A stretch of 64,000 bases of DNA from a virus. The stretch covers positions 8,321-72,320 of the IMG/VR virus record IMGVR_UViG_3300008262_000126; one strand, written 5' to 3'. How positions within the stretch are numbered: position 1 is the stretch's first letter; each line of letters begins with the position of its first letter. Below, one piece after another: positions 12,797 to 54,684 of the stretch. The position numbers were made by a program, and so were the translations under genes. The notes under the pieces are model-generated. The model did no database searches, was not told where the DNA came from, and saw nothing but the letters and a program-made list of their open reading frames with translations.

Positions 12797-13198
12797 ATGT
12801 TAGATTACGCATTTGGGGCCGGAGAATATTACGACAACGTGGATGATTTGCTTCAAGACGATTCAATGTTAGAGGTAGATTTGACGATTAAGGGATTAAA
12901 AAAACGATTACGTATCCGCGCTCTGAGCTTTGCGCAGATGGAGAAAATTAACCAACTTTCGCAGAAGAACGGAGAAATGGACAACACCGAGTTTACGGTA
13001 AATACTATTGTAGAGGGATTGATTCGTCCAAAAATGAATTCAGCACAGGCAAAGAAACTGCTTGATGCCAACGGGGAGGTAGTACGTGAACTCGCGGAAA
13101 ATATTTGGACTCTTGGAAAAATATCAAAAGACGCTTTCGAGAAGTACCTCGAGACACTTGAAAAGGACGCCTCTATATCGGAGCCCGTCGAAGAATAA
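12797..13198 (+). CDS. Tail assembly chaperone (gpG-like)
   Basis: Between tail tube and tape measure; LRIRALS...IVEGLIRPK pattern. Confidence 0.75.
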   Translation: MLDYAFGAGEYYDNVDDLLQDDSMLEVDLTIKGLKKRLRIRALSFAQMEKINQLSQKNGEMDNTEFTVNTIVEGLIRPKMNSAQAKKLLDANGEVVRELAENIWTLGKISKDAFEKYLETLEKDASISEPVEE

Positions 13199-13214
13199 CG
13201 CAGTCGGTATTCTA

Positions 13215-13460
13215 ATGAAAACCGCCATATCCACAAAGGATGAACTTGCGATGTGGATAGATCATTTTTTAAATTCAACGCAGTATACGGCACTAAATGC
13301 GAAGAAGCTATCTAAGCTTAGTTACGCAGATATGGCCGCAATCATTGCAATAAAACAAAAATCTTTAGAAGCTAGCGTCCGCCGCAAACTTCAAAAACAA
13401 AAGAAACTGGAAGAAAAAGAGTTAGTTGAGGAGGCGGAGACGTTCAAATTATTTATGTAG
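13215..13460 (+). CDS. Second tail assembly chaperone segment (gpT-like; start uncertain, possibly reached by frameshift)
   Basis: Frame open from 13086, overlapping the chaperone gene; no clear SD before the ATG at 13215. Confidence 0.5.
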   Translation: MKTAISTKDELAMWIDHFLNSTQYTALNAKKLSKLSYADMAAIIAIKQKSLEASVRRKLQKQKKLEEKELVEEAETFKLFM

Positions 13461-13470
13461 GTGGTGCTGA

Positions 13471-16400
13471 ATGTCAGATAGAATACAACAATTAGTAGGA
13501 TTAATTCAAACGCTGCTGCTTTTAAAAAGTACTAGTGAAGAGGCTGCTAATGTTTTTGAGAAGGTTATACAAAGTAAGGCAAACGCGCATGAGGGTGGTT
13601 TAGCCGGATATTTAAAAGAAATTACAGCAGACGCTAAAACAGCTACTACAACACTAGCTATATTAGAAAAAGAGATTAAGGCAGTAAGCGCGCTTCCAGT
13701 AAGGGCAGCAGCTGACGAAACTCTTACTTCAGAAGGTACTCGTCCGGCACCCGTAGTTTCGGATGCGGCACGTAAGCGTAAGGAAGTACAAGATCGGATA
13801 GATGACGAACGAAAAGCACTTAGAACAGAGGTGCGTGGTAACAATAGGCCAACAGTTGTAAACGTACATACAGATAGGCTAAAAAATTATGAACTTTTGC
13901 TTGCCCAGCTAGACGAACAAATAGACGAGCGAGAAGACACTCTCAGGGATCTGATCAGACGAACGCAAACTAAAATGAGAACGCCGGCAAAAACCTCTCG
14001 TTCAAGTTCACCAGTTGCGGATCCTGAGTACGCAGACATGAAATGGGCGCTTACTACACCGGATACTCGTTCCGCTACAAGTTATGCTGTTACACCGAAT
14101 CGAGGAGGACGGGTCAGCGTAGCTCAATCGGGCGGAGCAAGGCCTCCCGAAAACGCCTCCGTTTCGGCAATTGTTAAATATGTGAATACTCAACTGCGTC
14201 ACGAAAATCCAGCCGAAACTCGTCCGGAAATTGCCCCGATTGTCGCCGAACTTCAAAAACTTGTAAAAGACCGAGAAGAGGCAACTGTTCCTGCGGACAA
14301 AAATAGAATAAATCAGCAAATTAAGCAAGCATTCAAAAAGATAAATCAATCTTCTGGCACAGTAAGCAACACACAGCGACAAACGGCACAAGAATCAATT
14401 ATTGCCCCAATTATTGAAGCATTGCGGGCAGTAAAATTAGACGACCCTACACTTAATGCGGCAATGTCTCCAGTAGCTAGCAGTTCTGAAATTGAGTCCG
14501 CTCTAACCAGAGCCGTTGAAATGTTGGTAACTAGACTTGAGAATGGTGCAGCAGGAAGAGTAGGAGAAACAGCTTTAAGTACTGAAGGTTTTGAGTTTTT
14601 ACGTCCGGCGGCTTTTGATCAGTTGCTGAAAAGATTGAAAACGGTAGTTGCAGAAGCAACGACTCGACCGGTAATACCAAGAAGCCGAACAGTCGATCCA
14701 GGTACTGCAGAAGAAGTAGATTCTTCTGCGTTATTTTTGGGAACTGACTTTAGCATACAAAATGCCGGAGAAGATGGTAGTCCTCAAGTAGTAGACGCTT
14801 TACGGAGTAGCCGAGTATTTCCGGGACAGGTAACCAGAATCGGTGCTAACATTTCAAAGTATATTCAATCACTCAAAGCTTCACTAAATCCTACGCGTCG
14901 TTACAGTTCGGAAGCGCAAGGCGTAGACGTTCGTGCCGGTTCCCAAGTAGTAGCCGGAAGCTCAAGCGCCGTTTTCGGTGGGGGCATGGACGCCGAAGTA
15001 CAAAAGGCGGTTGACGCGCTCTTTTCAACCGTTATGCAGGACATAGAAGAAGGAAACATAAGGCCCGCTTCGATCGCAGGGCAGACTGTAGACTTGCCTG
15101 AATCTCTTGCAAAAATGGTTGTGGAGGCGATTCAATCTAGTTCAATTTTGTCAGAACACACAACAGCTTTCGGTAGAATGGCTGGAACTCGGGGACCTAG
15201 AGGGGCGATAGTTACTGGAGATCCAGTACGAAAGTTTGTTGCTTTGTTTGCGGGCGATTTAATAAATCAATATACTTCGACAGGGGCTGTTTCAGATCAG
15301 TCCGCTAGTCGTTTTGTAGAGCAGACAGTTGCTCCGGAACAAGAACAGGAAGTTACGTTGGCAGCAACTCACGCAAAACGTTTGCGCGAAAGACTTGTTT
15401 ATCAGAGAGATCAGGCAGATCTCAGTATGGTAACTGCGGCTCCAGCAATGGCTAATCGCTACAGAACTGAGTCGGCAAAGCTTGGCAAAGAGATACAGTT
15501 ACTGGATGAGATTCTGGCTGAATCTGAAAATCCAGAAGAGGAAAAAAAGTTAGCGCAAAGACGTGGACAGATAGCACTTCCGGGCAGTAACACAGCTCCC
15601 GCGTTAACGCGAGATCAAGCACTAACTGTTTTATTTAAACAGTCTATTGGATCCATTCCTGCAACACCTGATGCGGTAGCGCCGATTATAAGCAAAGCTC
15701 AGGAAGTTTCTGCGGGACTTGCACAATCGGGACTTACAATTCCAGCAAGACCCTCTTATGGAACTAGTCCCGTACAATCGTTAGTAGAGTATATGACATC
15801 CGGTCAGTCTATGGCACTAGACCGTTATCAAACTACTCCAATTACGCAGCAGTTAGACTCAGCCGGTAAAGTGTCGTCAGGTCAGCAAAATCGAGAGTTT
15901 ATCGAAATTATAAGCGATGCTTTTGGTTTATCTCGACAGTCTGCTTCTGCGGGTAATGTCATTACTGGTTTGTATCATGGAGCACGTGCGACAGACGCCA
16001 GCGGTAAAATGCTTGAGGGAGAAGAGCTTGATCAATCGCTTGGCGGTGGCTACAGAACAAAGAAAGGTTTGCAATCAATTGTTCAAGCATCCGCAGAGAT
16101 GGGTAGTTATGGTTCCGGCGGTATTCCCTTAATTGAGTACGCTAAGTTAGCAACTTCAACCGACCTTGACGCAGAGGAGCAGAGTCTATTTCAAGAGGTG
16201 CAGGCAAAACTTCCGCATCTGCAAGCAATAGATTCTGATTCACTTAAGCAACTTGCTGAGTTAGACACGTCGATGGATCCCAAAGAGTTAATTAAACGCG
16301 TGTTGACTTTGGCAGCCCCAGCAATAAAAAATCAAATAGTTGCTTCAATTAGGCGACGAGGTGGCGCTGCCGGCATGGGAGTTGATGAAGTCACTCAAAT

Positions 16401-19400
16401 GATTTCGGATTACGAAACAGCCGGGGTTGCTCCAGCAGGGTTTCAAGATGAATTTCGCGCTTTAGCGATGTTTGATCCTGCTAACATAAACACAACCGAT
16501 GTATCTGCAGCGGTTAACCGATCGCTTTCGTTGTTCAGCAATTTATTAACTGACAACGTGCAGTCAGGCGAAGGTATGCCTCAGTTTGCAGCCCGAGTTT
16601 TAGGAAGACAGGACCGACTAGTTGGTACGGGTCCGGATGTAGCTGCAGCCGTTCCTGATCAAGGAGCGTCTTACAGCTTGATGGGCAAGGGTGCAGAAGT
16701 TGCAAATCAAGAGTCTGGTCAAGTTGTCGGTGGTACGTATGGTCGCAATGTAGAAAATCAAATAAAAATTCAAGAAGCAATGAGTGAGTTTGAGCAGTTA
16801 ACTGCTGAAATAGAGGAAATGCAGAGAAGGATAGCTTTAGCACCTCACGAAGCTGATAAAGTACTTCCAGTTATCGAGCAAAAAAACAATCAACTTAAGA
16901 TTCTTAAACAAAAACTTGATACTTACAAAGCATCAGAACCAGATCCTATTTCTCAAAAATTTGAAGCTCTTTCCACAATTGCCCAAATGGACAATATTGA
17001 CCCCGCAACAAGAAGTGCTGCAATTTACGATTTAGGCATTATGCAGGAAATTTTTAATCAAACTGGCCGATACCAGATTGACGAATCCCAAGGATACGGA
17101 ACTGGTACTCAAGAGCAACGCCTTACTAATTTGATGGCTCATAAAGCAAAGTTAGACCGTTTGCAAAAATTGAGAGAAGAACGAGCAGCGTTAGAGGCAG
17201 AATCACCTGGAGATGGTCCCGCTAAGGCAGTTGAAGCTGTAATTAAAGAATCAGACGTTGATGGAGAAATTGCAGCTGTCACAAAAGACATTAGCGACAT
17301 GAAGTCCGAAGGTACGGGGTCAGAAAAAAAAGTTGATGCTTCACCTTATGCAAATATGAATATGACGGAATTGGAAGATCTTTATCAGAGATCTTATCAA
17401 AAATATGATAGAGCTATGTCTGCTGTACCTGGAATAGAAGAGGCAACCCAGAGATACCACAACTATGAAGGCGAGGATGACGAACAAGAATTAGAAATCT
17501 TAGTAAAAGCTCTTGAAGGCGCACGGGAAAATAACCCAGAGGTTGCAAAACTGTATCAAGAGCATCAAGCAGTAAGTGACGAGTATGAACGCCGTATCAA
17601 GGCTAATATCGAAAATAACCGCGCAATACAAGAAAAATTATCTCCTGCTGAAACTTCGGTTATGGCAACTTCAGTGCCAGGAACAATAGATGAAGAAATA
17701 GCAATAGACGAAAACGCCGTACCTTTAAAAATCCCTAGAATAAATCTTACAGAAAGTAAAGATATCACTGATGATGTTACGGCTGAGGATAAGTCAGTTT
17801 TTGTACACCCGGCTACTGTGGAAGCACAACTTATAGAATCTCCGGCCTTTACGGCATTTTTAGCTGGTAAAGAAAATCAGATAATAAGTGGTAATCAAGA
17901 TCGACTAGCCATCCGTCAAGATGCGGAAACAGGTGCACTTACGGCAGCGGTGGCTGATGGAGCGAGTTCGTCTTGGTTTTCCGCGAGGTTAGCCAACATG
18001 CTAGCAGAAGAGGCTGTTAACTTACCTACAGACGAGCCTTTTACAACCGAATCAATTTTATCGAGAGTTAATAACAGATCGGCACAAGAACAAGTAGACA
18101 AAATTTTAGAATATTTTACTGACGAGGACTATCAAACCCGTTATCAATTGCAACGTATGGGTTTAGAAAAAAATGATAAATCGAAAGAAAAATTTAAAAA
18201 ATTTTTACAACCTTTTGAAGAGGCCGGTACAAGCCCAACTGTCAGAGAACTTATAGCATTTTTACACGGTGAAAAAGCTGCAAACGACCCTGCCAACATT
18301 GGCCAGGTTGCCGGTGCTACGTTTGCCGGTTATCGCAGAACAAGAAGTTCAGAAGGCTACAAGCATGAATTTCTTACTGCTGGAGATGCTTTAATAGAAT
18401 CGGCTGATTTAGGTATTGCTAAAGAGACGCTGGGCGAAAATAAAACGAATCCGGACGGAACTCCCTACACAGGACCGCAAACTGCAGGGATTATATCAAC
18501 TGAAAGTGGAATAGCTCACCCAGGAAAAGTTTTGACAATTGAGTCAAAAACTCCGGCACGTGTTTTCTTAGCGTCCGACGCATATTCACATAGCGGAGAA
18601 TTCAGCCGACTTGATCCGGAAGTTGATGCTGGAGGTTTTGTTAACTTAGGTGAAAGACTGCTTCTTGACGAGGGGGAGTTAGGTACTCGGCAAGACGACC
18701 GAAGTTTTATAGGCATTACAGGAAGCGAGCAGACGGGTCCTGTAGTAAAGACCGGCGGACTTGCTGAAGAGGGATTTACAGGATTAGAATTTACCGATCA
18801 GTTAGAAGCGTACTTAGCACAAGAAAAACGTAAATTAAGTCAGATAAATCAATTGCTGACCGACAGGCCGGATATAGATAAAGAGTTAGAAAGAGAACGT
18901 CAAGCATTACTTAAATCTGCTGAAGCCGAAGTTGAACAACAAGGACAACTTGCAGAAGAAATAACAAACACACATCGAGCGATTGCTGATGAATATGACG
19001 CGGTTGTTGACAGATTAATGAAAAACAGATACGCCGGTCCCGAAGAAAAAGCTCAAGATAGCGAAAAACATCGAAAACTGGCGCAAACGCCGGAAATGCA
19101 AGAAGTTTTAAAAGCAAGAAGAGAGGCGTTTAAAGCTGAGCAAAAGTACAAGCAGATAGTAGCCGAAAACCCGCCGACAAGTGCAGAAAAAGCTAAAGTA
19201 GTTACAGAAAACAATATTCAGGCATTAACAGAAGAGCTTACAAAAAGAGGAGTAATCTTACCGACTGAGACAACACCAACAGCGGAAACTGTGATACCGG
19301 TAACTGACGTTACATCGGTTGCTGAAGAACCAAAAAGAATTGCAGATGAGCCTGTTAAAGTCAGTGCCGAAATTAAAGCATCGCCCGAAGAGATTCAAAA

Positions 19401-22400
19401 AAGAAAAGCAGACCTAGATTTACAAATAGCCGAAGCCGCAAGAGAAGCAGCACAATCACAACAGGTTATAGAGTTAATGCAAAGACAGGCCCAGGGTTTA
19501 GACACGGAAGATAGCGACATTCGTTTTGTTGTTGACAATACAGGCATTCCGGTAAGTTACGAAGATAAGCAGGTAATTGACCGAACTTCTTTGCGTCCGC
19601 TAGTGCGGACAAAAATGACTGTTGATGACACTGGTGAATCAGGATTTGTTTCTAATTTGAATGTTAGAGATATCGTAGATCAAGCAGAAGCAGTCAAGCC
19701 AACCGCCGAGTTAATGGACGAAATCGGTAAAATGTCCGATGCCGATCTCGCTGCTGTCAAAATGCCTTCAAAGGTTCTTACAGACGAAGAGAAAGAAAAA
19801 TATCAATACTTAAGACAAGCGTCGAAACAGGCAAAAGAAGAAGCACGTAAAATCTATGAAGCTGACACTCCCCTTGGTGAAGCAATTCGAAAATATTACA
19901 GAATTACCAACGTAGAAGAGCGGGACAGAATGACGCTGGGAGACATAGGAAGCCCGGCAATTCCCGGATTAAAGGAAGCCGTAGCTGAGTACGAATTACA
20001 GCGGGGTATATCACTTGGATCAGACGAGCAAACGGGTAAGCTTGGAAAGGCGAGTGAAGCCACGCCACTACAACTCGCCGCTCGTTTATTCAGATCGTCT
20101 CGTGCAGCAGTCAGAGCGTATGAAACAGAATTTGGAGTAGAGCCTGCGTTTAGTGCGCGCGAGGTAATGGACGAGCTCTTAGCATCTTCCGCAAGAGCCG
20201 AAGTAGATAGCGCTCCAGCTGGATCTGCAGAAACAGCGGTAGCATTGGACAAAACTATTTCAAGCTTTGAAGGGGGAATACCTGAAATTAAAGGCTCTAC
20301 TGATAGAGCACCGAGAAGACCTAGAAGAGCCCCGGCTGATGTAGTTGCAGACGTTGAACAACCTTACACTGAGAATCAGTTAAAGTATGCTCGAGCACAG
20401 GTAAGGGCTTTAGCTGGCAGAACCGACCTCACAGCCGAACAAAAAAGACAATTAAGCGAAGCAAGAAAAAAATTACACAATTATGCAATGAAGCGGTTGA
20501 CGACTAATTTCGGGGACAACAAAGGCGTGATGCAAATTGCAAACGTAGTTGCCGGTTTAACTCCTCCTGATTGGGCAAAAGATGACGTGCAGAGTGCCCG
20601 TGTTTCGGCAATATCACAAGCAATGGCTGACTTAAAACCAGGACAGTTGGCGAAGTTGAAAGACGTCGATCTTAGAGACCCAGTGCAGATGGATATACTT
20701 TCAAAAGATCCGGCGCTGCAGCCAATAATGGCGTTGCTGGCTGATCAGGATATCGATGCCGCGCTTAAGTATAGATCAGGCACGACGGAATACGATGAGG
20801 CAAAAGGACTGCTATCTGCAATTGAAGGGGCAAAGAAACGCTTACCTGTTCCTGAGCCAACGGCTGGCGTACCGACTGACGCAAGGCGATTGTTTTTTGA
20901 CTTAGAAACAAACTTTGCAAAAAAACCTGAAGACCGGTTAATCTTTCAAGCAGCTACAGGCGTTAACGACGGAAAAGTCAGCGACATGTACGCAGTTCCC
21001 TTAGACTCGAGCGCTGAGGAGATAAACAGAATAGCGGTGGACCCCACAATTCCCGATGACGAGAAGAGAAAATTAATTAGAGAACTCGCTCTTAAACGAG
21101 CTGGAAAACCTCCTTTAGTTGAAGGCAGAGCCAGCGGTAACGACGTTAGTTCGGGAGTTATCGATAATCTAGTTAATGCTGCAATGTCGGGACGTCAAAT
21201 ACTTACTCAAGGCCAAATACGCGGAGATTTACAGAGTCAAATTCTAGCTGCCACTACAGTAGCAGGGCATAACATTGAAACCTTTGACTTGCCCACAGTA
21301 TACGGCGGCGAAATGGCTGTTCCGGATGCAGTAAAAGCAAAAACAGAAGACACATTGCTGATGAGTCGTAACATGTATCCAGGATCTCACACACTGAGTG
21401 ATACATATGAGGTGGTTACCGGAGATCCGCTAGTCAACGCTCACGATGCACGCGCAGACACGGAAGCAGTGCAAAGAATATTTCCTCAGGTTTCTGATCC
21501 AGAGGAACGTGCCAAAATAACAGAAGCATATTTAGCAAAACATGGAATTACAATGGATTCCGCTGTTGGTCAGCTTGTTGCTACACCTAAGATAGCAGAC
21601 ATTGCAGATACGGAAGAACGAAAGAAAGCATCTAGACAAGTGGCTGAGGCGCACGCTTTCTATCAACCTTTAGCGGACATGCAGGACTTTACACGCCGTA
21701 TCGCAAAAAGCGGCGGTAAAACAATACTGAGGGACGCTGATAAAACAGTGGCTGCTGAACAAGGCTGGTACGATATGAGTCCAGCTGCGAAAGCTAGTTT
21801 ATTCGAACGAATGAACAAAATGTTTGTAGGACATACTAAGCTCAAAGGGAAAAAAATAGAAGAACTTGACGACGCAGAGTTAGGCGAGTTTGTTAAGGAA
21901 ATAAATGCTACCTACTTAGAACCCAATGCAGATGCGGCAGTAGGTGGGGATTTCGGCGGAATGAAAAGACTGCTGGAGGAAAAAGTAGGCGGGAAAATGG
22001 CGTTCTCTGATTTTCGAACACCAGCTGAACGCCTTGCAGCCATTAAAGGTAGAACAATTGAAGATGTAATGAGCACAGCAGGTTCTTCGGGTGTTAAAGT
22101 TGGTCCTGCCATAAGTAAAGAAACAGTGGGCGATGCAATTGAAGATATATCATTAGCAACTGAAAGACCGACAAAAGTGAAAACTCCCGGATCTGCACCA
22201 TCGGTAACTGCAAGTACTTCGGACGGCGGCTCAAAAGAACCCCCAAGAGAACCACCAGTTACTTTCTCAGACGACGCGGACTCTGGCGAGCGTGGTGGTC
22301 CTGGCGGCGGTATTACTACAATAGCTTCGGCTACTATCGACACGTTGCATGCCGGTGCGGTAGAGATAAACATTCATGGTGGTAACGTTACTATAGATGC

Positions 22401-25400
22401 CAACTTCAGTGCAGGCGCTGCAGAGAAAATGCAAAAATCGTTAGTGTACATATCAAATAAAGATGGTATGAACGTAAACGGCGATGTCACTAGTGTAGGT
22501 ACGGGCGGTGGTGGCGGTGGCTATCGACGGGTGTCAGTTGCTGACAGATCTATATTAAATCAACTTGACGCAGCAAAAAACCAGATAGCTGGGCAACTTC
22601 AAACAGAAACTGACCCAGCAACACGAGAACGGTTGCGCGGTAACCTCAATGAGGTCAGCAGGCAAGCAATTCGCGCCATTATTGAGCCTAAGGTAAAAGC
22701 AATTGATAGCGAAGGTATGGAACCTTACGTCAACGAACGTTTTTACTACGGGGATGAAACAACAGATTCTAAAGAATCGTTGACATATTACAATGACGCG
22801 GTGGCACAGGCACATCAAGACCTCACTACACAACTTGAAGCTCAACAGGCAATTCCAGAAGGAACTGACGGAAGAGATGAAGAAATTCAGCGAATACAAA
22901 AGCAAATATCGTTAGTTGAGGAACTTATCAATGCGCTTACAGAACTTAATCAAGCAGAGCAGCGTGTAGGTAGTGCAACTTCAACTAGAGCAATTGTTGA
23001 TCCTACTGAAGTAAAAAAACCAGCATATCCTACGAATAATAGCGGTTATCGAAAGTTGTCTCCAGAAGATCGTGCTTCATTAGCCGTACTCGACGCTACA
23101 AAAAATTCAATAAGCGAGCAGCTGAGAACTGAGCAAGATCCAGAAGCCAGGGCAAGATTAAAAGAAACACTAACCGGTGCGAGCAAAAAAGCAATTGCAG
23201 ATATTATTAAACCGAAAGCAACAAAGCTACTTGGCTATGGTTTTGTAAATACTGTCGACGCCTTATCAACATCTCCAGAAGACTCATTAGTTAACTATAG
23301 TCAGGCGGCGCAGAGCAAACTTAGCGAATTAAACGGTAGATTGTTTATGATCGAGAGCGAGCGAGAAGATGCTCCGGGTCGTGAAGAAGCAATCGAGAGA
23401 ACTAAAAGAGAAATACAGCAAGTCCACGAGCTTATAGACGCTTTGACCGAGCTTAATCAGGCTGAGCAACGAGTTGGTGCAGCTGGTGCAACACGTAATG
23501 CTGAAAGTCCTTACGGACCAAAACCAACTGCAGATCCGCGTGCAGGAGCTAACAAATATAGAAAAGTTTCGTTTGCGGACCAGGCTTCTTTTAATGTTCT
23601 GGAATCTACAAAAAATGAGGTATCCGCAAGACTGAGAGATGAGACCGATTCAGCAGCACGTGACGCGCTGCGTCAGAGTCTTGTAAATGCAAGCGAGCGG
23701 GCTATTAACGAAGTTATTAAACCTAAAGCGGCGAAGGTATTAAATCCGACGCAGCTTGCGGCGCTTTCGGCTTTGCCAATGGGTCCTGAAGAAGCACTAG
23801 TCTCTTACAATGAAATGGCCCAGTATAATCTCAATAATCTCTCAACCGAATTGGCTACACAAGAGGCACTGCCTGAAGGTACAAGCGGAAGAGATACAGA
23901 GATTGAAAGATTAAAAGCAGAAATAGCCGCGGTTGAGGAGCTCATTAATGCACTGACCGAATTAAACGCTATAGAACAACGCGTTGGATCGGCAAGTGGT
24001 ACACGCAATGTAAACAGTCCGTACGGTACTACATCCGGAACTGGTACGGGAACATCAGCAAGTAAATACTACTCAAGAAAAGCGAAAGAAGACGAGCAGG
24101 TATTTCTACAGTTAGCGCGAAACTCATTCGATCAATCAGCGGGGTCTATGGGTATTGCGGGCGGAACAACGGCCGATTCTCGTAAATTTTTAACAGACCT
24201 TACGCGCAGTACTGCAACGACAATGATTAACAGTTCGGGAATACAAGCTCCGGGAATGGCCGCCGATATTGCAGCGATTGCAGCAACAAGTCCCGAAGTA
24301 CAGTCAGCTTATGATGATGCAGCTAAAAGTTTAACAGATTTTAGTGGAAAAGTTGGCGGTACAATTACAGACGTCGCTGACGACTTATTTACTGTAGTTT
24401 CTGGATTAGAGAAGCTGAAAGCGGCGCTTACTCCTATAGCAGCTACCTCTCCTCAAGCAGCAGCAGCTTTGGCGGTTGTTCAAACTGCTATTGACGAAAC
24501 AAGTGCGGCTGGAAAAGAACAGCGGGGAACTGCAGGTGTAATTGAAACGGACAATCGAAAGAAAGTTTCGCTTGTCGAAGAACAAATGCAAGCAGCAGCA
24601 AGTAGACCTGGATTTTTTGCCGGCGGCAGACGTGAAAGAGAAATGAGGCAGATACAAGAGGGATACATAAGAGACACCTTCGGTAAGGAAGGACTAGACG
24701 CCCTTATGCACCGAGGTAGAATAAGAGCATACACAGCAACAGGAAAACGTGTCGACATGGCGCAAGCAACTGTACAAGAGCAGCGAGACACAGTTGAACG
24801 ATTACAAAAACAAGGTATTAATATTACTGCTGAAGATATGACAGGTATAGCACGAATGTCCGGCAGAGTCGAACAGACAAAAAGATCTGCACCGATGGGC
24901 GATAAGTTATTCTATGCTGCGTCAAAAATTAGAGACACGCAGAGTGTAGTTCAAGCGGCAGTTGATACTGTTACTAGTCTAGCAAACATACCGCAAATGG
25001 CCGGAGGAATGATTCAGCAGTTTGCGAGTAGTGCTACAGGATCTAACAGGGTAATGACAACCGCAAGAGGGTTAGCACTTGATCCAGAGAATTATACAGC
25101 CGCATTAAATGCGGCTGATATGCAGAGAAAGCAATTCGGCGGCTCATTAACTTCAAATCTAGGTCAAGTTACTAGCTTTATTCCCTTGTCAAACGCGTAC
25201 GGTGTAGATATTGGAAAGTCTGTAAAAGTAGCTAGAAAATTAGCCGCGTTTGACCCAGCTCAGGGTATGGAAGGTGCTGGCATAGCAATCAAAGAATTTC
25301 TATCTGGTAACGTTTCGTCTCTCTCACGTCGATTTGAAATTAATCGATCCGCGCTTTCTAAAATTAATACCGGCGATGCAACACAAATGCTTGATAGTCT

Positions 25401-28400
25401 TGATCAGCTTCTTTCAAGTATGGGCGTTACTGATAGACTTATTGATGAGCAAGCAAACTCTATGGCGACTAAATACGACAAGATGATCGGTAATCTGGAA
25501 AGTGTGCAAATTAGCTCAACTACGGCGATAGTCGACTTTATCACTCCGGCGCTTGAATCTTTAATTGGAGAGCAGTCGTACTTTGGTAAGAATGTAAAAG
25601 AGCGTTCACTTAATACCGTGCTTAAAGAGACCATTACATCTTACGGCGATGACATATTAAGCGATCCGGAAGCTGGATTAGACAGCGTTAATATTGGCGG
25701 CAGTTTAAGCACGTTTACTTCGCAAATGGACACAATTTTAGAAGCGGCAAATAAACGAATGGCCGGAGAGGCGGGAAGGTATAATAGTGCTACTGGCGCT
25801 TCTGTATCAGTTCCTGGTTATCGTCTACTCGGTAACATGAAGCCTCAAGAACGAGCAAATATTCAATTTGATGCGCTGCTTGGGCAGGCACAAGGATTAA
25901 ATGCAACTCAAGCAATTATGCAAGCCATGCGAAATAATCCCGGAGATTACAACTCAAGTCCTGAATTTTTAAATCAACGCGAATCTTTAAAAACTAGACA
26001 AGTGAAAGTTGATCCGGTTGCTTACGCAGAAGCTTACAAAAAAGCCGAAGCTGGTTTGCTTGTAGCGGATCAAGGCGCAACAGATCTCAGCGGTCTGGGC
26101 TTGGGGTATATAAACTTTAATGCCGAGCCCGTAAAAGAAAAACCTCTTATGACTAAGGGAAGAGTAAGAAGACAAGTTGACGCTGATACGTTCGATATAG
26201 AAATACCGGGACGCAAAGACTTGGTCAGGGTTAGAACGGGTGTTATAGACGCACAGGAAAAAGGAACGCAAGATGAGCTTGCAGCCCGTGTTGGCGGTGC
26301 CGATATAATAGGAATGGACCGAGCCATGATTGGTGGGGAGTATAAACCCGGACAGGGACCGGAAATTACATTAGTAGGAACTTTAAAAAACATTGACGAG
26401 AACAATAGAGTAGTTGCTCAACTGTTAAATAGCGAGGGTAAGAATTACTCGCTTGAAATGATAGCAACCGGAAATGCATCTTCAGCTTTTATGCAAGGAC
26501 TTGATAAACAGACTATAGATAGTCTTGCATACATAGAGAAGGTAGTTGCCGATAATGGAGTAGGTCCGCAAAACAGAATAGCTAGAGATTTAAACCTTGG
26601 AGGAGCTCCCGAAATTTCAGAAGAAGTGCGTAGTTCCTATTTCTGGAATAAATATGGATTAGGTATAGGTGGATCCGCAATAGCAGGGGGAGCAGCCGGT
26701 TTAGGCGGAGCAGCGCTTGCTACCAACGCCACACTTGGTACAGCTGGATTGGCAGGCCTTGGTGGATTAGTAGCTGCTGAAATAGCCGCTGCAATAGCCC
26801 TCCCTGCCGTGGCGGCCGTGGGTTTATATGCAGGCGGGGCTTATGTGTCAGATCGGCTAGATAGTTCTCCCGAAAAAATGAGAGAATTGTATAAAATGCA
26901 AAGTGATCTAGATCGACAAGATGCAAAAATGAACATATTTAATACATTTGCAGATCAGGCAAACTTAAATGCTGAGCAAGTTGGTAAATATGTGGGTGGT
27001 GCTAAGTATCGATCTGACATGCCAAGTAAGGAAATTGTACTTACTCCGGGATTTGGACCGGGAGCTCCAATTATTCCAGGTACTGCACCAACAAAAACAG
27101 CTTTTGAAATTATGCAAGATAGCAAGGCTTCGCTAGGACAGGTTTATTTAGCAAACTACGAAGAAGCTTCCAAAAGTGGACAAGAGCGGTTTGCAACAGC
27201 CGGCGACGCAACTAAGAGAATATTAGAACGTCAGGTGTACGATCCGGTATCAGAAACCATGATGTCTTATGTTGATTACGAGGCTCAAACAATAGCGCTT
27301 AAGAAAACAGCCGATGTTGATCCGACGGCATACAGAAAATTTGATGCGATGCGCGGAGAGATTTTAAAACCTATAGGGCAAACTGGAGCACTTATTGAAA
27401 ATGAGAAATTAGTTGAGCGGGGCATTAAATATGGAACCAGGTTAGACAAACGAGCATTAGCTGAAGCCGAGGCTTCTCCATTTCGAGCAGACGTTGCAGA
27501 TTTAACTAAAAAAAGAGACGACGCGTTTAATGCAGGAGCCGTAGCTGAAGGTCAAAGATATAAAACTCAAATTGATAAAGCTAATGCTGAAATAGAAAAA
27601 ATTACGTATACAGATGCTGAATGGGATAAAATACCAGAAGCTGCGCGTTACTTAATAATGTCGGCTGAAGAAGTCGCAAATATGACTGCAGAAGAAATAA
27701 GATTTGCAGCTGATCAAACCTACCAACAAGGGCTTAATCCAGTTGACTATAAGCAAGAAGCAAAAAACTTTTTTGACGGTACAATGGACCGTAATTTTCA
27801 AAGACGGCAACAGCGTGTAGACACAACTTTAACTGCTTTTGCAAGACAGTCAATTATGGGATTAGGCGATGCGTCGGCGTTGCCTAATGACATAGCTAGA
27901 CAAGTTGTTAACTCTGGTGGAGCGGGGGTAATTGACAACACCCCAGAAGCGAGAGCTGTGCGTATGGTAGGGCGTTCAGGCTTAATGCCAAAAAATAGAG
28001 ATTCTGCGCTAGACACTGTAGCAATGCTTACCGAAGCACAAAGAGCAGCAGTAAGAGAGCAATTAGATATTGCAAGAACAAATCGTCAAGTAGCTTTAGC
28101 TAATGCACCAGAAGCTCAATTATATAAATCAGGATTTACAAATTTTGTTATGGCAATGAATAAAGCAGGAGCAACTGCAGAGGATCTTGGTCGATCTTTT
28201 ATGAACACCATGAACATGATGTCCGAAGGCAATCCTAGATACGGCTTAGACTTAGCACAGCAAATGACTGGTTTTAGCTACGAGGCTATGATCGGTATGC
28301 AACTTCGTCCGCGCACTGGTGTAGATGCCGAGGGTAATCCTATATCAAGTCTTAACGGCGCGAACGGTATGCCTTACGGGTATAATGCAAAACCCGGCGA

Positions 28401-30036
28401 GATTATTAGTGGGCCAATGGTCATGCCGTACACTTCAGGCCCTCGAGGAACAATAGCGTACTCGAGAGACATGATGGCAGTAGGTGCAAACGGTGTTCGA
28501 GAAGGCGCTTTAGGTATTGCTCCTTCGCAATGGCAGCAGTTTGTATCAAACGCTACAAACGCAAATGCCGAGTTACAAAGACGTGCAATGAGTAATGCAA
28601 TGCAAGAACGCGATTTGAATAAGAATCACCAGCGTAATCTTGAAGATATTACTCGAAACGGCATGCGTCAGTTAGAGAGCATTCATTTAAATTACACACG
28701 AAACATGCAACAGATGACCATGCAAGCAGACCTTGTTAAGGGAGCGACCCGAGCAAATGCAACAAGAAGCATTGCAATGGCTGCTATCGACCCTACAAGC
28801 AAAGCAGCTCTTAACAGCCAATACTGGGCGCAGGATATGTATTCTCAGCATCTAGGTCAAGGCGATTCGAAAAATTTCTTAAAAGACAGCGCAAACATAG
28901 CAACTCTTACAGCGATAGATCCTTCATTGTCTGCAGACATAAGCGCATTAGAGACTACAAACGCCGCGTATGAAAGCTCAGCCATAACAGACCCAAATAG
29001 GCAGAATCTGCAAGATGCAAAAAGAGCGACTATAGAACCAATTTTAACTAAGCTACGGGGCCTTATTGAAACTGAAGAAGATCCAATAAAAAAAGCCGCA
29101 CTCCAGACGGCCCTTGTTCGTTTAAGTCCAGATGCATCAAAAACAATAGCAGCTCAAACTGAAAATGACAAATGGTTAAAGCAGACGCTCGGTGATAAAA
29201 TAACTCAAAAGCAATTAGGTCAACAAATTGCTGACCAAGAGTTTCAAAATCAGTTTAGACCGTTGGATATTGCAAATGACTCAGCAAGTTTAGCTGAAGC
29301 AGGAAAATCAAAAGATCCTTTAGCTTTTCTTAATGCAAAACGTTCAAGTCTGTCAATGTACCGCGGATTTGCTCAGTCTGATATTGGTTTAGCTGAAACT
29401 ACAAATAGCTTGACAGGTTTGTTAGGAACTGGTAGTCTTTTTGAAACGAATACTACCGAAGCGTTTAAGCAAATAGCTGAAGTTGCGGGTAGCGCGACTC
29501 AGGGAGTTCTTTATAGTCTTGACGATTTTGAAACCTCGTTTCAACAACAGATGGAAGATGCTCTTAGAAACTTCGAACGACAGCGTTTGGATATGATCCA
29601 GGCCTTTGCTGATGCTGCGGTTGAAATTGCGTCAATTGTTCCTGAAGAAATGGTACCAATTATGCAAGCTACAAGTGCCTTTATGAATACGCAACGACAA
29701 GCCGAGTTACTCTGGCTGTCTGGAAGAACAGACGAAGCCAACGCACTTGCCTACCAAGGCATGCTAAAGCTTGGCGAAGTTGTGTACGGTGAAGGTAAGG
29801 GTAAAGAATATGCAGACAAATATAGTCAGAACTTTCAAGACATGGCAGACGTTGCAGCACGAGACGTTCCTCAAGGTGACTTAGGAAAGTTTGCTGTAAA
29901 GACAGAAGACGGTTGGGCATTGCTGGTAAAAGAGACTAAGTCCGCACGAGTATACGACAGGCCTCCTCCTAATAAGGATAAAGAGACTCTGAATCAAGGG
30001 AATGGTCCGTTTGTTGCACCGGGTGGCAAAGGCTAA
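13471..30036 (+). CDS. Giant tape measure protein (5521 aa) with embedded PP2C, DEDDh exonuclease and SNase-like domains
   Basis: Position after the chaperones and before the tail-tip genes; TMP signature LAAFDPAQGMEGAGIAIKEFLSGNVSSLSRRFE near 25240; Gly/Ala hydrophobic stretch at about 26650-26850; enzyme motifs listed in findings. Confidence 0.88.
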   Translation: MSDRIQQLVGLIQTLLLLKSTSEEAANVFEKVIQSKANAHEGGLAGYLKEITADAKTATTTLAILEKEIKAVSALPVRAAADETLTSEGTRPAPVVSDAARKRKEVQDRIDDERKALRTEVRGNNRPTVVNVHTDRLKNYELLLAQLDEQIDEREDTLRDLIRRTQTKMRTPAKTSRSSSPVADPEYADMKWALTTPDTRSATSYAVTPNRGGRVSVAQSGGARPPENASVSAIVKYVNTQLRHENPAETRPEIAPIVAELQKLVKDREEATVPADKNRINQQIKQAFKKINQSSGTVSNTQRQTAQESIIAPIIEALRAVKLDDPTLNAAMSPVASSSEIESALTRAVEMLVTRLENGAAGRVGETALSTEGFEFLRPAAFDQLLKRLKTVVAEATTRPVIPRSRTVDPGTAEEVDSSALFLGTDFSIQNAGEDGSPQVVDALRSSRVFPGQVTRIGANISKYIQSLKASLNPTRRYSSEAQGVDVRAGSQVVAGSSSAVFGGGMDAEVQKAVDALFSTVMQDIEEGNIRPASIAGQTVDLPESLAKMVVEAIQSSSILSEHTTAFGRMAGTRGPRGAIVTGDPVRKFVALFAGDLINQYTSTGAVSDQSASRFVEQTVAPEQEQEVTLAATHAKRLRERLVYQRDQADLSMVTAAPAMANRYRTESAKLGKEIQLLDEILAESENPEEEKKLAQRRGQIALPGSNTAPALTRDQALTVLFKQSIGSIPATPDAVAPIISKAQEVSAGLAQSGLTIPARPSYGTSPVQSLVEYMTSGQSMALDRYQTTPITQQLDSAGKVSSGQQNREFIEIISDAFGLSRQSASAGNVITGLYHGARATDASGKMLEGEELDQSLGGGYRTKKGLQSIVQASAEMGSYGSGGIPLIEYAKLATSTDLDAEEQSLFQEVQAKLPHLQAIDSDSLKQLAELDTSMDPKELIKRVLTLAAPAIKNQIVASIRRRGGAAGMGVDEVTQMISDYETAGVAPAGFQDEFRALAMFDPANINTTDVSAAVNRSLSLFSNLLTDNVQSGEGMPQFAARVLGRQDRLVGTGPDVAAAVPDQGASYSLMGKGAEVANQESGQVVGGTYGRNVENQIKIQEAMSEFEQLTAEIEEMQRRIALAPHEADKVLPVIEQKNNQLKILKQKLDTYKASEPDPISQKFEALSTIAQMDNIDPATRSAAIYDLGIMQEIFNQTGRYQIDESQGYGTGTQEQRLTNLMAHKAKLDRLQKLREERAALEAESPGDGPAKAVEAVIKESDVDGEIAAVTKDISDMKSEGTGSEKKVDASPYANMNMTELEDLYQRSYQKYDRAMSAVPGIEEATQRYHNYEGEDDEQELEILVKALEGARENNPEVAKLYQEHQAVSDEYERRIKANIENNRAIQEKLSPAETSVMATSVPGTIDEEIAIDENAVPLKIPRINLTESKDITDDVTAEDKSVFVHPATVEAQLIESPAFTAFLAGKENQIISGNQDRLAIRQDAETGALTAAVADGASSSWFSARLANMLAEEAVNLPTDEPFTTESILSRVNNRSAQEQVDKILEYFTDEDYQTRYQLQRMGLEKNDKSKEKFKKFLQPFEEAGTSPTVRELIAFLHGEKAANDPANIGQVAGATFAGYRRTRSSEGYKHEFLTAGDALIESADLGIAKETLGENKTNPDGTPYTGPQTAGIISTESGIAHPGKVLTIESKTPARVFLASDAYSHSGEFSRLDPEVDAGGFVNLGERLLLDEGELGTRQDDRSFIGITGSEQTGPVVKTGGLAEEGFTGLEFTDQLEAYLAQEKRKLSQINQLLTDRPDIDKELERERQALLKSAEAEVEQQGQLAEEITNTHRAIADEYDAVVDRLMKNRYAGPEEKAQDSEKHRKLAQTPEMQEVLKARREAFKAEQKYKQIVAENPPTSAEKAKVVTENNIQALTEELTKRGVILPTETTPTAETVIPVTDVTSVAEEPKRIADEPVKVSAEIKASPEEIQKRKADLDLQIAEAAREAAQSQQVIELMQRQAQGLDTEDSDIRFVVDNTGIPVSYEDKQVIDRTSLRPLVRTKMTVDDTGESGFVSNLNVRDIVDQAEAVKPTAELMDEIGKMSDADLAAVKMPSKVLTDEEKEKYQYLRQASKQAKEEARKIYEADTPLGEAIRKYYRITNVEERDRMTLGDIGSPAIPGLKEAVAEYELQRGISLGSDEQTGKLGKASEATPLQLAARLFRSSRAAVRAYETEFGVEPAFSAREVMDELLASSARAEVDSAPAGSAETAVALDKTISSFEGGIPEIKGSTDRAPRRPRRAPADVVADVEQPYTENQLKYARAQVRALAGRTDLTAEQKRQLSEARKKLHNYAMKRLTTNFGDNKGVMQIANVVAGLTPPDWAKDDVQSARVSAISQAMADLKPGQLAKLKDVDLRDPVQMDILSKDPALQPIMALLADQDIDAALKYRSGTTEYDEAKGLLSAIEGAKKRLPVPEPTAGVPTDARRLFFDLETNFAKKPEDRLIFQAATGVNDGKVSDMYAVPLDSSAEEINRIAVDPTIPDDEKRKLIRELALKRAGKPPLVEGRASGNDVSSGVIDNLVNAAMSGRQILTQGQIRGDLQSQILAATTVAGHNIETFDLPTVYGGEMAVPDAVKAKTEDTLLMSRNMYPGSHTLSDTYEVVTGDPLVNAHDARADTEAVQRIFPQVSDPEERAKITEAYLAKHGITMDSAVGQLVATPKIADIADTEERKKASRQVAEAHAFYQPLADMQDFTRRIAKSGGKTILRDADKTVAAEQGWYDMSPAAKASLFERMNKMFVGHTKLKGKKIEELDDAELGEFVKEINATYLEPNADAAVGGDFGGMKRLLEEKVGGKMAFSDFRTPAERLAAIKGRTIEDVMSTAGSSGVKVGPAISKETVGDAIEDISLATERPTKVKTPGSAPSVTASTSDGGSKEPPREPPVTFSDDADSGERGGPGGGITTIASATIDTLHAGAVEINIHGGNVTIDANFSAGAAEKMQKSLVYISNKDGMNVNGDVTSVGTGGGGGGYRRVSVADRSILNQLDAAKNQIAGQLQTETDPATRERLRGNLNEVSRQAIRAIIEPKVKAIDSEGMEPYVNERFYYGDETTDSKESLTYYNDAVAQAHQDLTTQLEAQQAIPEGTDGRDEEIQRIQKQISLVEELINALTELNQAEQRVGSATSTRAIVDPTEVKKPAYPTNNSGYRKLSPEDRASLAVLDATKNSISEQLRTEQDPEARARLKETLTGASKKAIADIIKPKATKLLGYGFVNTVDALSTSPEDSLVNYSQAAQSKLSELNGRLFMIESEREDAPGREEAIERTKREIQQVHELIDALTELNQAEQRVGAAGATRNAESPYGPKPTADPRAGANKYRKVSFADQASFNVLESTKNEVSARLRDETDSAARDALRQSLVNASERAINEVIKPKAAKVLNPTQLAALSALPMGPEEALVSYNEMAQYNLNNLSTELATQEALPEGTSGRDTEIERLKAEIAAVEELINALTELNAIEQRVGSASGTRNVNSPYGTTSGTGTGTSASKYYSRKAKEDEQVFLQLARNSFDQSAGSMGIAGGTTADSRKFLTDLTRSTATTMINSSGIQAPGMAADIAAIAATSPEVQSAYDDAAKSLTDFSGKVGGTITDVADDLFTVVSGLEKLKAALTPIAATSPQAAAALAVVQTAIDETSAAGKEQRGTAGVIETDNRKKVSLVEEQMQAAASRPGFFAGGRREREMRQIQEGYIRDTFGKEGLDALMHRGRIRAYTATGKRVDMAQATVQEQRDTVERLQKQGINITAEDMTGIARMSGRVEQTKRSAPMGDKLFYAASKIRDTQSVVQAAVDTVTSLANIPQMAGGMIQQFASSATGSNRVMTTARGLALDPENYTAALNAADMQRKQFGGSLTSNLGQVTSFIPLSNAYGVDIGKSVKVARKLAAFDPAQGMEGAGIAIKEFLSGNVSSLSRRFEINRSALSKINTGDATQMLDSLDQLLSSMGVTDRLIDEQANSMATKYDKMIGNLESVQISSTTAIVDFITPALESLIGEQSYFGKNVKERSLNTVLKETITSYGDDILSDPEAGLDSVNIGGSLSTFTSQMDTILEAANKRMAGEAGRYNSATGASVSVPGYRLLGNMKPQERANIQFDALLGQAQGLNATQAIMQAMRNNPGDYNSSPEFLNQRESLKTRQVKVDPVAYAEAYKKAEAGLLVADQGATDLSGLGLGYINFNAEPVKEKPLMTKGRVRRQVDADTFDIEIPGRKDLVRVRTGVIDAQEKGTQDELAARVGGADIIGMDRAMIGGEYKPGQGPEITLVGTLKNIDENNRVVAQLLNSEGKNYSLEMIATGNASSAFMQGLDKQTIDSLAYIEKVVADNGVGPQNRIARDLNLGGAPEISEEVRSSYFWNKYGLGIGGSAIAGGAAGLGGAALATNATLGTAGLAGLGGLVAAEIAAAIALPAVAAVGLYAGGAYVSDRLDSSPEKMRELYKMQSDLDRQDAKMNIFNTFADQANLNAEQVGKYVGGAKYRSDMPSKEIVLTPGFGPGAPIIPGTAPTKTAFEIMQDSKASLGQVYLANYEEASKSGQERFATAGDATKRILERQVYDPVSETMMSYVDYEAQTIALKKTADVDPTAYRKFDAMRGEILKPIGQTGALIENEKLVERGIKYGTRLDKRALAEAEASPFRADVADLTKKRDDAFNAGAVAEGQRYKTQIDKANAEIEKITYTDAEWDKIPEAARYLIMSAEEVANMTAEEIRFAADQTYQQGLNPVDYKQEAKNFFDGTMDRNFQRRQQRVDTTLTAFARQSIMGLGDASALPNDIARQVVNSGGAGVIDNTPEARAVRMVGRSGLMPKNRDSALDTVAMLTEAQRAAVREQLDIARTNRQVALANAPEAQLYKSGFTNFVMAMNKAGATAEDLGRSFMNTMNMMSEGNPRYGLDLAQQMTGFSYEAMIGMQLRPRTGVDAEGNPISSLNGANGMPYGYNAKPGEIISGPMVMPYTSGPRGTIAYSRDMMAVGANGVREGALGIAPSQWQQFVSNATNANAELQRRAMSNAMQERDLNKNHQRNLEDITRNGMRQLESIHLNYTRNMQQMTMQADLVKGATRANATRSIAMAAIDPTSKAALNSQYWAQDMYSQHLGQGDSKNFLKDSANIATLTAIDPSLSADISALETTNAAYESSAITDPNRQNLQDAKRATIEPILTKLRGLIETEEDPIKKAALQTALVRLSPDASKTIAAQTENDKWLKQTLGDKITQKQLGQQIADQEFQNQFRPLDIANDSASLAEAGKSKDPLAFLNAKRSSLSMYRGFAQSDIGLAETTNSLTGLLGTGSLFETNTTEAFKQIAEVAGSATQGVLYSLDDFETSFQQQMEDALRNFERQRLDMIQAFADAAVEIASIVPEEMVPIMQATSAFMNTQRQAELLWLSGRTDEANALAYQGMLKLGEVVYGEGKGKEYADKYSQNFQDMADVAARDVPQGDLGKFAVKTEDGWALLVKETKSARVYDRPPPNKDKETLNQGNGPFVAPGGKG
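22522..24010 (+). repeat. Three tandem 170-175-aa repeats inside the TMP
   Basis: Units start YRRVS/YRKLS/YRKVS at 22522, 23047 and 23557 and end ELI(N/D)ALTELN(QA/AI)EQRVG. Confidence 0.85.
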
Positions 30037-30092: not shown

Positions 30093-30509
30093 ATGACATA
30101 TACGATACAGCCCATTTACCTCAGTGGTAGTTTACACGGGTATGGATTTTATCAAGATTTAAAAGCAACTTCGATTAGCACCACAATGAACAATGTAGCT
30201 GAGGTGTTGCAAGCAGTTGACGGCACCAATTCGTATCTTCACAGGTCATACAAGCATGTGTGGAACGTAACCTTTAACATGATTGTTTATTCTGGTTCTG
30301 CTGGTTATCCGTTGGCCACAGTTGCAAATTTACGTGGTATCTATCAGGGATTTTCCAGCGTGTCAACGAGCGTTATTTTTTGTTTTGAATCCAAACAGTA
30401 CCCTGTTTTTTTCGAGCCAGGTAGCTGGCAAGCGGAGTTGGCTTCGACAACTGTCACAATGACGAACAAGCCGTACTATAACGTCTCGTTTAGGCTGGTG
30501 GAGATATGA
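30093..30509 (+). CDS. Distal tail (Dit-like) protein
   Basis: First gene after the TMP; AVDGT...YKHVWNVTF...YNVSFRLVE. Confidence 0.6.
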   Translation: MTYTIQPIYLSGSLHGYGFYQDLKATSISTTMNNVAEVLQAVDGTNSYLHRSYKHVWNVTFNMIVYSGSAGYPLATVANLRGIYQGFSSVSTSVIFCFESKQYPVFFEPGSWQAELASTTVTMTNKPYYNVSFRLVEI

Positions 30510-32074: not shown

Positions 32075-32083
32075 GAGGTTTAT

Positions 32084-52757: not shown

Positions 52758-52833
52758 GCCGGCGTAGCTCAGCGGATAGAGCATCTGCCTTCTAAGCAGG
52801 TTGTCGGGGGTTCGATTCCCTCCGTCGGTACCA
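52758..52833 (+). tRNA. tRNA-Arg (anticodon TCT)
   Basis: GCCGGCG/CGTCGGT acceptor stem, TAGCTCAG D-arm, loop CT-TCT-AA, GGTTCGATTCC, encoded CCA. Confidence 0.96.
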
Positions 52834-54490: not shown

Positions 54491-54684
54491 TAAATGGATA
54501 CAGCGACGAGAAAGTTATTGCGGATCTGCAAAAAGATCTTAAAGAGCTGCAAAACATGTCTCGAGTGTTTGAGCCGCGAGGAGTCACTATCTGGTGGGAC
54601 CTCCAAAGTGATCTGAAGGCAATTGAAAAAGTCATTAAAGACCTGCGTCGTGAGATAAACTCACAAAACAATCCGGGCCAATAG
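54487..54684 (+). CDS. Hypothetical protein
   Basis: ATGA-coupled; the last codons overlap the 5' end of the tRNA. Confidence 0.5.
   Translation: MINGYSDEKVIADLQKDLKELQNMSRVFEPRGVTIWWDLQSDLKAIEKVIKDLRREINSQNNPGQ

Follow-up and report, generated by a model that had tools for sequence, protein, structure and literature searches.

A giant cysteine-free candidate tape measure protein with predicted enzyme modules in an uncultured freshwater phage

Results

A giant reading frame and its features

The window analyzed here is the whole 64,000-nucleotide stretch of DNA formed by bases 8321-72320 of the 72,320-bp linear virus record IMGVR_UViG_3300008262_000126, for which CheckV gave a completeness of approximately 95%. 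It carries a giant open reading frame (ORF) whose product is a candidate tape measure protein (TMP), in which three modules resembling a PP2C-fold enzyme, a DEDDh exonuclease, and a staphylococcal nuclease (SNase) were recognized. The ORF takes up 22.9% of the record and starts with an ATG behind a AGGTGGTG-like Shine-Dalgarno sequence, and an A-rich coding strand coincides exactly with the gene. An earlier note, made from the sequence of this DNA alone, had described one uninterrupted frame of 5,521 amino acids (aa), and the frame was indeed found to run from start to end without an internal stop codon. Its features and those of the surrounding region are listed in Table 1.

Table 1. Features of the giant gene and its surroundings (window coordinates; occurrence among 16 relatives was mapped with phmmer, with additions by BLASTP)
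Feature	Residues	Position	Strand	Basis	Occurrence in relatives
Probable tail assembly chaperone, XkdN-like (ORF1)		12797..13198	+	phrog_389, E 2e-4; Pfam Phage_TAC_5 PF08890, E 0.0014	
Second chaperone-region frame		13083..13460	+	Three-frame translation; +1 relative to ORF1, overlapping it	
Giant ORF, candidate TMP with enzyme modules	5,521 aa	13471..30036	+	Cysteine-free	
Conserved N-terminal region	aa 300-1250	14368..17220	+	phmmer	10/16
Variable cassette around the PP2C module		17725..19352	+	Run X2 contig; identity drop in the closest relative	
PP2C/PPM-fold module with helical insertion	aa 1449-1756	17815..18738	+	AlphaFold2, Foldseek, VIA-align	3/16 (phmmer); a fourth by BLASTP
DEDDh (DnaQ-like) 3'-5' exonuclease module, predicted	aa 2468-2686	20872..21528	+	Residues, AlphaFold2, Foldseek, VIA-align	11/16
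Three tandem repeats of ~170 aa	aa 3013-3530	22507..24060	+	Self-comparison	Copy number 3, 1, or 0
Conserved TMP-like core (TMP_3-like block ~aa 3873-3994)	aa 3546-4200	24106..26070	+	In all relatives	16/16
Staphylococcal-nuclease-like module	aa 4230-4365	26158..26565	+	PF00565, PDB profile search	11/16
Gly/Ala-rich hydrophobic segment	aa 4395-4460	26653..26850	+	Hydropathy scan	
Conserved C-terminal region	aa 4750-5490	27718..29940	+	phmmer	14/16 (phmmer); the other two by BLASTP
tRNA-Arg(TCT)		52758-52833			
tRNA-Met(CAT)		54675-54750			
tRNA-Leu(TAA)		55002-55086			

The giant protein resembles a TMP in its core and its gene position

Several lines of evidence point to the giant protein being a TMP, which we regard as very probable. 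The conserved core carries the motif LAAFDPAQGMEGAG at aa 3924-3937, the site near aa 3920 where a TMP core had been claimed in the earlier note. A word-based search for proteins of ordinary length returned P0020 (1,044 aa, E 2.4e-22) and P0021 (988 aa, E 2.6e-3 in 5.8 billion sequences). P0021 has a C-terminal Peptidase_M23 domain and matches TMP_3 at E 6.9e-7, while P0020 matches TMP_3 at E 0.0038. The alignment lies inside the TMP_3 region of P0021, with LAAFDPAQGMEGAG...SLSRRFEIN of the giant protein pairing with LSASDPMQGFEGAV...SLRERFEVD, and the similarity of P0021 to the core was recorded both by BLASTP (E 4e-9) and by hhalign with a five-sequence profile (probability 86.8%, E 4.2e-6, 116 columns). 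The TMP_3-like motif block is nearly invariant across relatives of only 33-42% overall identity. Furthermore, when aa 3546-4200 were examined with Atlas, TMP families accounted for 29 of the 30 named neighbors (19 PhageMin_Tail, 8 TMP_3, and 2 TMP_2); these scores, 0.93-0.94, fall just below the tool's benchmark for recognition and are taken as a lead only. The C-terminal third of the protein thus appears TMP-like by way of intermediates. The claimed core motif was therefore found and aligned with a TMP_3 region, but it went unmatched by the curated TMP models. These models likewise matched no other ORF in five related records, and a profile of the core gave no match among the PDB sequences.

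Elsewhere in the chain, a hydropathy scan detected the Gly/Ala-rich segment as the sole hydrophobic one in the protein. The conserved N-terminal region gave no Pfam or NCBIfam match and no usable Atlas match, and contained no conserved DxDxD.

The gene context agreed with the TMP gene slot assigned to the ORF by the earlier note, since a chaperone-like ORF with an overlapping frame lies upstream and a tail-fibre-assembly gene downstream. The two overlapping frames, the second of which ends at 13460, 10 nt upstream of the giant gene, resemble the chaperone pair that precedes TMP genes, and, by analogy with G/GT chaperones, a frameshift product would presumably be made from them; +1 frameshifting is the less common type. 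Further upstream are ORFs whose sizes and order are those of a head module and, behind it, small tail genes; the majority of them gave no family match. Downstream, five ORFs of 138-845 aa occupy 30093-39083, and their sole match was a weak one to a PHROG of unknown function; the tail-fibre-assembly gene, a glycosyltransferase, and replication genes lie beyond them. The tail is probably non-contractile; the sheath model PF04984 matched none of four related records, which is weak evidence given the divergence of the phage.

A DEDDh exonuclease fold with invariant catalytic residues

The DEDDh exonuclease claimed by the earlier note was confirmed at the level of the predicted fold. Seven residues, D2477, E2479, H2600, N2601, D2606, H2658, and D2663 (D38, E40, H161, N162, D167, H219, and D224 in module numbering), were invariant in all 11 aligned sequences; D2477, E2479, D2606, H2658, and D2663 among them correspond to the D, E, D, H, and D of the motifs named Exo I, II, and III. 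The AlphaFold2 model of the module had a mean predicted local distance difference test score (pLDDT) of 89.3 and a predicted template modeling score (pTM) of 0.81. At E<=1e-3, Foldseek retrieved 309 matches in the PDB, with TREX1, TREX2, Escherichia coli exonuclease I, and RNase T at the top. Structural alignment with VIA-align reached Z 14.1 for exonuclease I (1fxx; 171 aa, root-mean-square deviation [rmsd] 3.7), 13.7 for the DinG exonuclease domain, 13.6 for a DnaQ domain, and 13.2 for the Pol III epsilon subunit (2gui; 156 aa, rmsd 3.0). Matches at the sequence level were weak, namely the NCBIfam polC, epsilon, and DEDD-exonuclease models at E 0.011-0.079 and a PDB profile match at E 0.012, and a word-based search with the module alone returned only an identical 184-aa fragment. 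Exonuclease activity is thus predicted from the modeled fold and the conserved residues.

A PP2C-fold module lies within a variable cassette

For the region that had been claimed as a PP2C phosphatase, the AlphaFold2 model (pLDDT 73.9, pTM 0.78) had a long helical insertion, and helices flank this module as they do the modeled DEDDh module. Foldseek returned 103 matches at E<=1e-3, and all those listed were PPM-fold enzymes. The best VIA-align match was the Legionella phosphocholine hydrolase Lem3 (8alk_A; Z 18.5, 248 aa, rmsd 4.2), followed by human PPM1B (2p8e; Z 16.5, 217 aa, rmsd 3.4) and RsbX (3w40; Z 16.0, 190 of 199 aa, rmsd 2.9). In the alignment of the module, D38 and D57-G58 were invariant in all seven sequences, and the giant relatives whose sequences extend over the respective columns retain GD, SDA, and DDR; the conserved aspartates presumably map to the canonical metal-binding motifs. 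PP2C_2 was the top or only family in all four homologues scanned, among them the close relative and two small proteins, each time below the cut-off of 24 bits (window, 17.3; L008, 20.3; P0022, 19.9; P0023, 21.9), and at the scale of a single genome it scored 17.9 bits (E 7.4e-5). An exhaustive HMMER search with the module, from which the two small proteins came, found only three proteins, and phmmer against the PDB sequences gave no match at E<=1. Because the best structural matches include enzymes that remove phosphocholine or AMP, labeling the module a protein Ser/Thr phosphatase assumes too much. The PPM fold of the earlier claim therefore stands, and its aspartates are conserved, but the substrate need not be a phosphoprotein.

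The module lies in a cassette that varies between strains. In run X2, one contig whose two ends match the flanks at >=90% identity connects position 17725 directly with 19352, so that the PP2C cassette is skipped at this identity threshold, and the closest relative, P0003, is 62% identical within the cassette versus 94% and 88% in the flanks. At the cassette borders, neither a repeated peptide nor flanking DNA repeats were found in the window; the only repeats were those of the 170-aa array. In runs X2 and X3, a contig was also observed that joins 19409 back to 17686 with four other letters in between, indicating that in the variant strain a sequence like the spacer behind the cassette also precedes the PP2C cassette.

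An SNase-like module precedes the hydrophobic segment

The third module claimed earlier, an SNase, received support from hidden Markov models only. Pfam SNase PF00565 was matched at the corresponding place of the giant ORFs of G004 (29.5 bits), G003 (21.1 bits), and G001 (18.9 bits) and was not found in that of G005, so that two of five related records lie over the cut-off. In addition, P0014 has a precomputed PF00565 match, and two relatives are named thermonuclease-family endonucleases in their sources. A four-sequence profile of the module matched 236 PDB sequences at E<=10, of which the best 60 were all staphylococcal nuclease or thermonuclease (E 0.007-0.075); the profile searches aligned only the C-terminal half of the domain. 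With the single sequence, phmmer gave no match among PDB sequences at E<=1. In the N-terminal part of the module, the sequences DADT and RVRTGVIDAQE resemble, as judged by eye only, the SNase metal and catalytic sites (Asp, Arg, and Glu). Thus, the family assignment of the earlier note is supported, in two relatives over the cut-off and by the PDB profile, but its claim of retained catalytic residues comes down to this comparison by eye.

Relatives share a conserved frame and differ in cargo

A search limited to proteins of 3,036-9,662 aa recovered, besides the protein of the window itself, 16 relatives with lengths of 3,660-6,477 aa from NCBI, JGI, ENA, and Logan assemblies. A viral-contig scan with the DEDDh alignment yielded one new locus and a metagenome scan one more, while a genome scan for prophages added none and so pointed to no host. 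Comparing the occurrence of the modules (Table 1), we found that the two nucleases belong to the conserved frame of these proteins, whereas the PP2C module, present in four of 16 relatives, is variable.

In the relative P0003/G001 (6,477 aa), which is 89% identical over the best alignment, the N-terminal region, PP2C, DEDDh, repeats, core, SNase, and C-terminus occur in the same order. P0003 has about 1,060 extra residues between PP2C and DEDDh, and these include a NUDIX domain (27.8 bits versus a cut-off of 21.1). G005 carries a cpYpsA domain (26.6 bits versus a cut-off of 26.2), and precomputed Pfam matches of other relatives comprise NADAR, DUF7831, E3_binding, and cpYpsA. The NUDIX, NADAR, and cpYpsA domains have roles related to nucleotides, NAD, and ADP-ribose. 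The relatives are mosaics; the G005 protein, for example, is P0018-like in front and P0017-like behind. The swapping of cargo domains between related TMPs, which the earlier note had proposed to look for, was therefore seen for NUDIX, NADAR, cpYpsA, and DUF7831, but not for DEDDh and SNase.

P0005 and P0006 were also observed to be apparently collinear save for about 933 extra residues in P0005. P0005 also has a second, partial PP2C-like segment (aa 1689-1791), and the difference looks like a cassette duplication or insertion.

The giant protein and its 16 relatives contain no cysteine in 88,360 residues, whereas the 25 other ORFs of the window have 52 cysteines in 8,734 aa. Cysteine is also absent from P0020, P0021, and gp96 of the Thermus phage P23-45 (5,002 aa). 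This absence may reflect selection for unfolded passage through a narrow channel and the periplasm.

Parts of the gene recur in other studies, and the gene is likely translated

Sequences of other studies were compared with the giant gene. In runs X4 and X5, 41 of 43 and 47 of 49 pieces, respectively, were >=99% identical, and 29 of 30 bins were covered; runs X2 and X3, also of other studies, contain a variant strain, and the several bins that they leave uncovered were given no weight. A central 10-kb stretch was represented in part in 20 rows of 17 studies, for the most part metagenomes of lakes or fresh water; one of the rows is perhaps the source sample, and the runs with a low share were left aside as evidence of habitat. 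Moreover, a collinear ORF of 6,477 aa is encoded by an 82,652-bp record with a completeness rating of 100%.

The codon usage of the gene differs from that of the other ORFs. AGA makes up 39% of its 327 Arg codons versus 15% of 399 in the 25 other ORFs, and TTA makes up 37% of its 426 Leu codons versus 19% of 736. Since the phage's own tRNA-Arg(TCT) and tRNA-Leu(TAA) match the enriched AGA and TTA, the giant gene is likely translated, as judged from these codon counts.

Discussion

Proposed enlargement of a TMP into an enzyme carrier

We propose that the giant protein is the TMP of a long-tailed uncultured freshwater phage that has been enlarged into an enzyme carrier, and we assign this reading a probability of roughly 0.6. 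In the proposed layout, the C-terminal ~2,000 aa would form the conserved TMP part, with the core, the SNase-like domain, the membrane segment, and the conserved end. The array of three 170-aa repeats would stand before the core, and the N-terminal ~3,000 aa would comprise the conserved region, the variable PP2C-fold cassette, and the conserved DEDDh module. During assembly inside the tail tube, the chain would take on an extended or partly unfolded form, which would fit its lack of cysteine. At infection, it would be expelled ahead of the DNA, with the hydrophobic segment inserting into the membrane. The enzyme modules would regain their fold at the cell or within it and would be active ahead of any expression of phage genes. 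Substrates of the nucleases would be nucleic acids or nucleotide signals, and those of the PP2C-fold enzyme would be protein modifications of the phospho-, AMP-, or phosphocholine type. The ORF and its position, two enzyme folds with conserved catalytic residues, the family, and the cargo differences among relatives were observed, whereas the occurrence of the protein in virions, its ejection and refolding, its targets, and the tail length are what we infer.

The following points weigh against this proposal. No TMP model matched the giant protein directly, whether from Pfam (whole protein and 10 tiles), PHROGs, or NCBIfam, and TMP_3 PF20155 and PhageMin_Tail PF10145 each matched none of five related records. 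The intermediate P0021 itself scores only 29.6 bits for TMP_3, below the Pfam cut-off of 41, and the chaperone match upstream is weak (PF08890, 19 bits versus a cut-off of 27). Likewise, the Pfam matches of the enzyme modules in the window fall short: PP2C_2 reached E 0.0036 and 17.3 bits in its tile versus a cut-off of 24, SNase PF00565 reached 19.2 bits (E 8e-5 at one-genome scale) versus 21, and RNase_T PF00929 matched the DEDDh module in none of five records. Beyond PP2C_2 and SNase, the whole protein and its tiles gave only Pfam hits at chance level. The confidence of the PP2C model is moderate, its alignment has seven sequences, and the other four models had pLDDT values of only 64.6-67.7. 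No relative was detected in 50,697 GenBank phage records (tblastn with all three thirds of the protein) or in GTDB genomes. Furthermore, folded domains lying three or more abreast may not fit the lumen of a tail tube, and the Pfam tiles revealed no peptidase able to release the modules.

Comparison with known systems

The idea of an enzyme-bearing TMP has a published precedent, gp96 of P23-45, which the earlier note did not name. According to Chaban et al. 2024 (PMC10770324), this 5,002-aa TMP is a virion protein whose N-terminus is an active RNA polymerase and whose remainder contains metallopeptidase and transmembrane domains. The authors propose that the enzyme leaves with the TMP and acts at a TMP-formed pore, and they place fusions of this type also in phages P74-26, G20c, and TSP4; the legend to their Fig. 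1e states that an antibody to the N-terminal fragment of gp96 detects the protein in virions. Both proteins have ~5,000 aa or more, occupy the TMP slot in long-tailed phage genomes of 72-84 kb, carry enzyme domains N-terminal to hydrophobic membrane segments, and lack cysteine altogether. They differ in that no sequence similarity was found between them (best BLASTP E 0.24; none by phmmer), in that the window protein has three hydrolase-type modules, with different cargo in its relatives, whereas gp96 has one polymerase, and in that the metallopeptidase of gp96 has no counterpart in the tiles of the window protein. A gp96-like polymerase in the N-terminal region was considered as well and rejected, because the sole DxDxD of the protein, at aa 2425, lies outside that region and no similarity was detected.

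Polyvalent proteins are a second point of reference. As described in Iyer et al. 2017 (PMC5512222), they carry several effector-type enzyme domains per chain, are believed to enter together with the DNA and to work early, and contain pervasive peptidases with which they are believed to cut themselves. The giant protein is like them in having multiple unrelated enzyme domains whose content varies among relatives, but its carrier is a tail ruler and no peptidase was found in its Pfam tiles. The terms 'tape measure', 'SNase', 'PP2C', and 'DEDD' have no occurrence in PMC5512222.

Ordinary TMPs with built-in hydrolases are the third. The TMP of mycobacteriophage TM4 (PMC1796659) is an ordinary TMP with a cell-wall hydrolase domain. 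The enzyme is built into the ruler in TM4 and in P0021 (988 aa), which shares the core motif, as it is in the window protein; the latter, however, is five times longer and has cargo of a type with intracellular targets, and no muralytic domain was detected in it by Pfam, whether as a whole or in tiles. In the literature searched, no multi-enzyme TMP was found described and P23-45 was the only true precedent, with the proviso that the supplementary polymerase survey of PMC10770324 might list more.

Alternative explanations

Among the alternatives, the one that survives best, though still unlikely, is that the protein is a TMP whose nucleases serve entry itself, acting at the envelope or on the ends of the phage DNA, instead of takeover or counter-defence; the SNase-like domain may even be a structural OB-fold part of a channel. 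This would agree with DEDDh and SNase being frame elements, each present in 11 of 16 relatives versus four of 16 for PP2C, and with the SNase being in every case immediately followed by the hydrophobic segment. In two relatives, the alignment of the SNase is poor over its N-terminal half, so that the active site may be lost there, and staphylococcal nucleases are typically secreted and Ca-dependent. However, the DEDDh catalytic residues, invariant in 11 of 11 sequences, argue for activity, and the NUDIX, NADAR, and cpYpsA domains of the relatives have no obvious role in DNA entry.

An improbable alternative is a polyprotein that is cleaved during assembly, so that only its C-terminal TMP part enters the tail while the enzymes act late in the cell that produces the phage or are packed elsewhere, such as in the head. 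Globular domains would fit the tail tube poorly, and lambda gpH is processed. For polyvalent proteins, moreover, cleavage by peptidases of their own has been suggested (PMC5512222). Yet no peptidase domain was found in any tile of the giant protein, the chain has no cysteine anywhere, not even in the enzyme modules, and the P23-45 TMP was detected in virions with an antibody to its N-terminal fragment, as the figure legend in PMC10770324 has it.

Less probable again is that the protein is a giant ejection or internal virion protein that shares a TMP motif, the true TMP being another, unrecognized gene. The lack of a direct TMP-model match would suit this explanation, as would the five ORFs at 30093-39083 without an informative family match. 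Against it stand the position of the gene directly after the chaperone-like pair, the hhalign and BLASTP link to the TMP_3/M23 protein P0021, the Atlas neighbors, and the combination of a hydrophobic segment, repeats, and no cysteine, as in gp96.

Finally, an assembly chimera, which the earlier note had named as a way in which its reading could fail, is very unlikely: the record is a metagenome contig and no single contig of the examined runs spans the gene, but contigs of >=99% identity from two runs of other studies cover 29 of the 30 bins, parts of the stretch were found in 17 studies, and there are 16 collinear relatives, including the 6,477-aa ORF on the complete 82.6-kb contig.

Implications of the proposed enzyme-carrying TMP

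If the enzymes travel with the TMP, long-tailed phages would deliver pre-made proteins without host gene expression, and defences acting within the first minutes could be disarmed. The NUDIX, NADAR, and cpYpsA cargo of the relatives points the same way. The family described here suggests that uncultured freshwater phages make wide use of the principle of an enzyme-carrying TMP. A structural question also arises, namely how a narrow tail tube would store folded domains of 20-35 kDa and let them pass.

A broader idea, which we offer tentatively and with the odds somewhat against it, is that the tail tube is a conduit for protein with exchangeable cargo. In this scheme, a cysteine-free frame with fixed nucleases would accept cassettes swapped by recombination (PP2C-fold, NUDIX, NADAR, and cpYpsA/SLOG), and strain-specific anti-defence or takeover enzymes would be injected ahead of the DNA. 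If true, phages would have their own equivalent of modular secreted effectors, with a scope well beyond that of the one polymerase fusion published so far.

Other features of the window

When all of the window was scanned with Rfam at gathering thresholds, the three tRNAs of Table 1 were the only matches, and no hammerhead ribozyme was detected at 58452-58519 (minus strand). In the head module, a 524-aa protein (7086-8660) has a weak HiPIP match in its N-terminal part (PF01355, E 0.01, aa 45-84) and accounts for five of the few cysteines that the structural ORFs contain. A gene for a ribonucleotide reductase large subunit with a B12-dependent class II insertion domain lies on the minus strand (2868-5018), upstream of the head genes.

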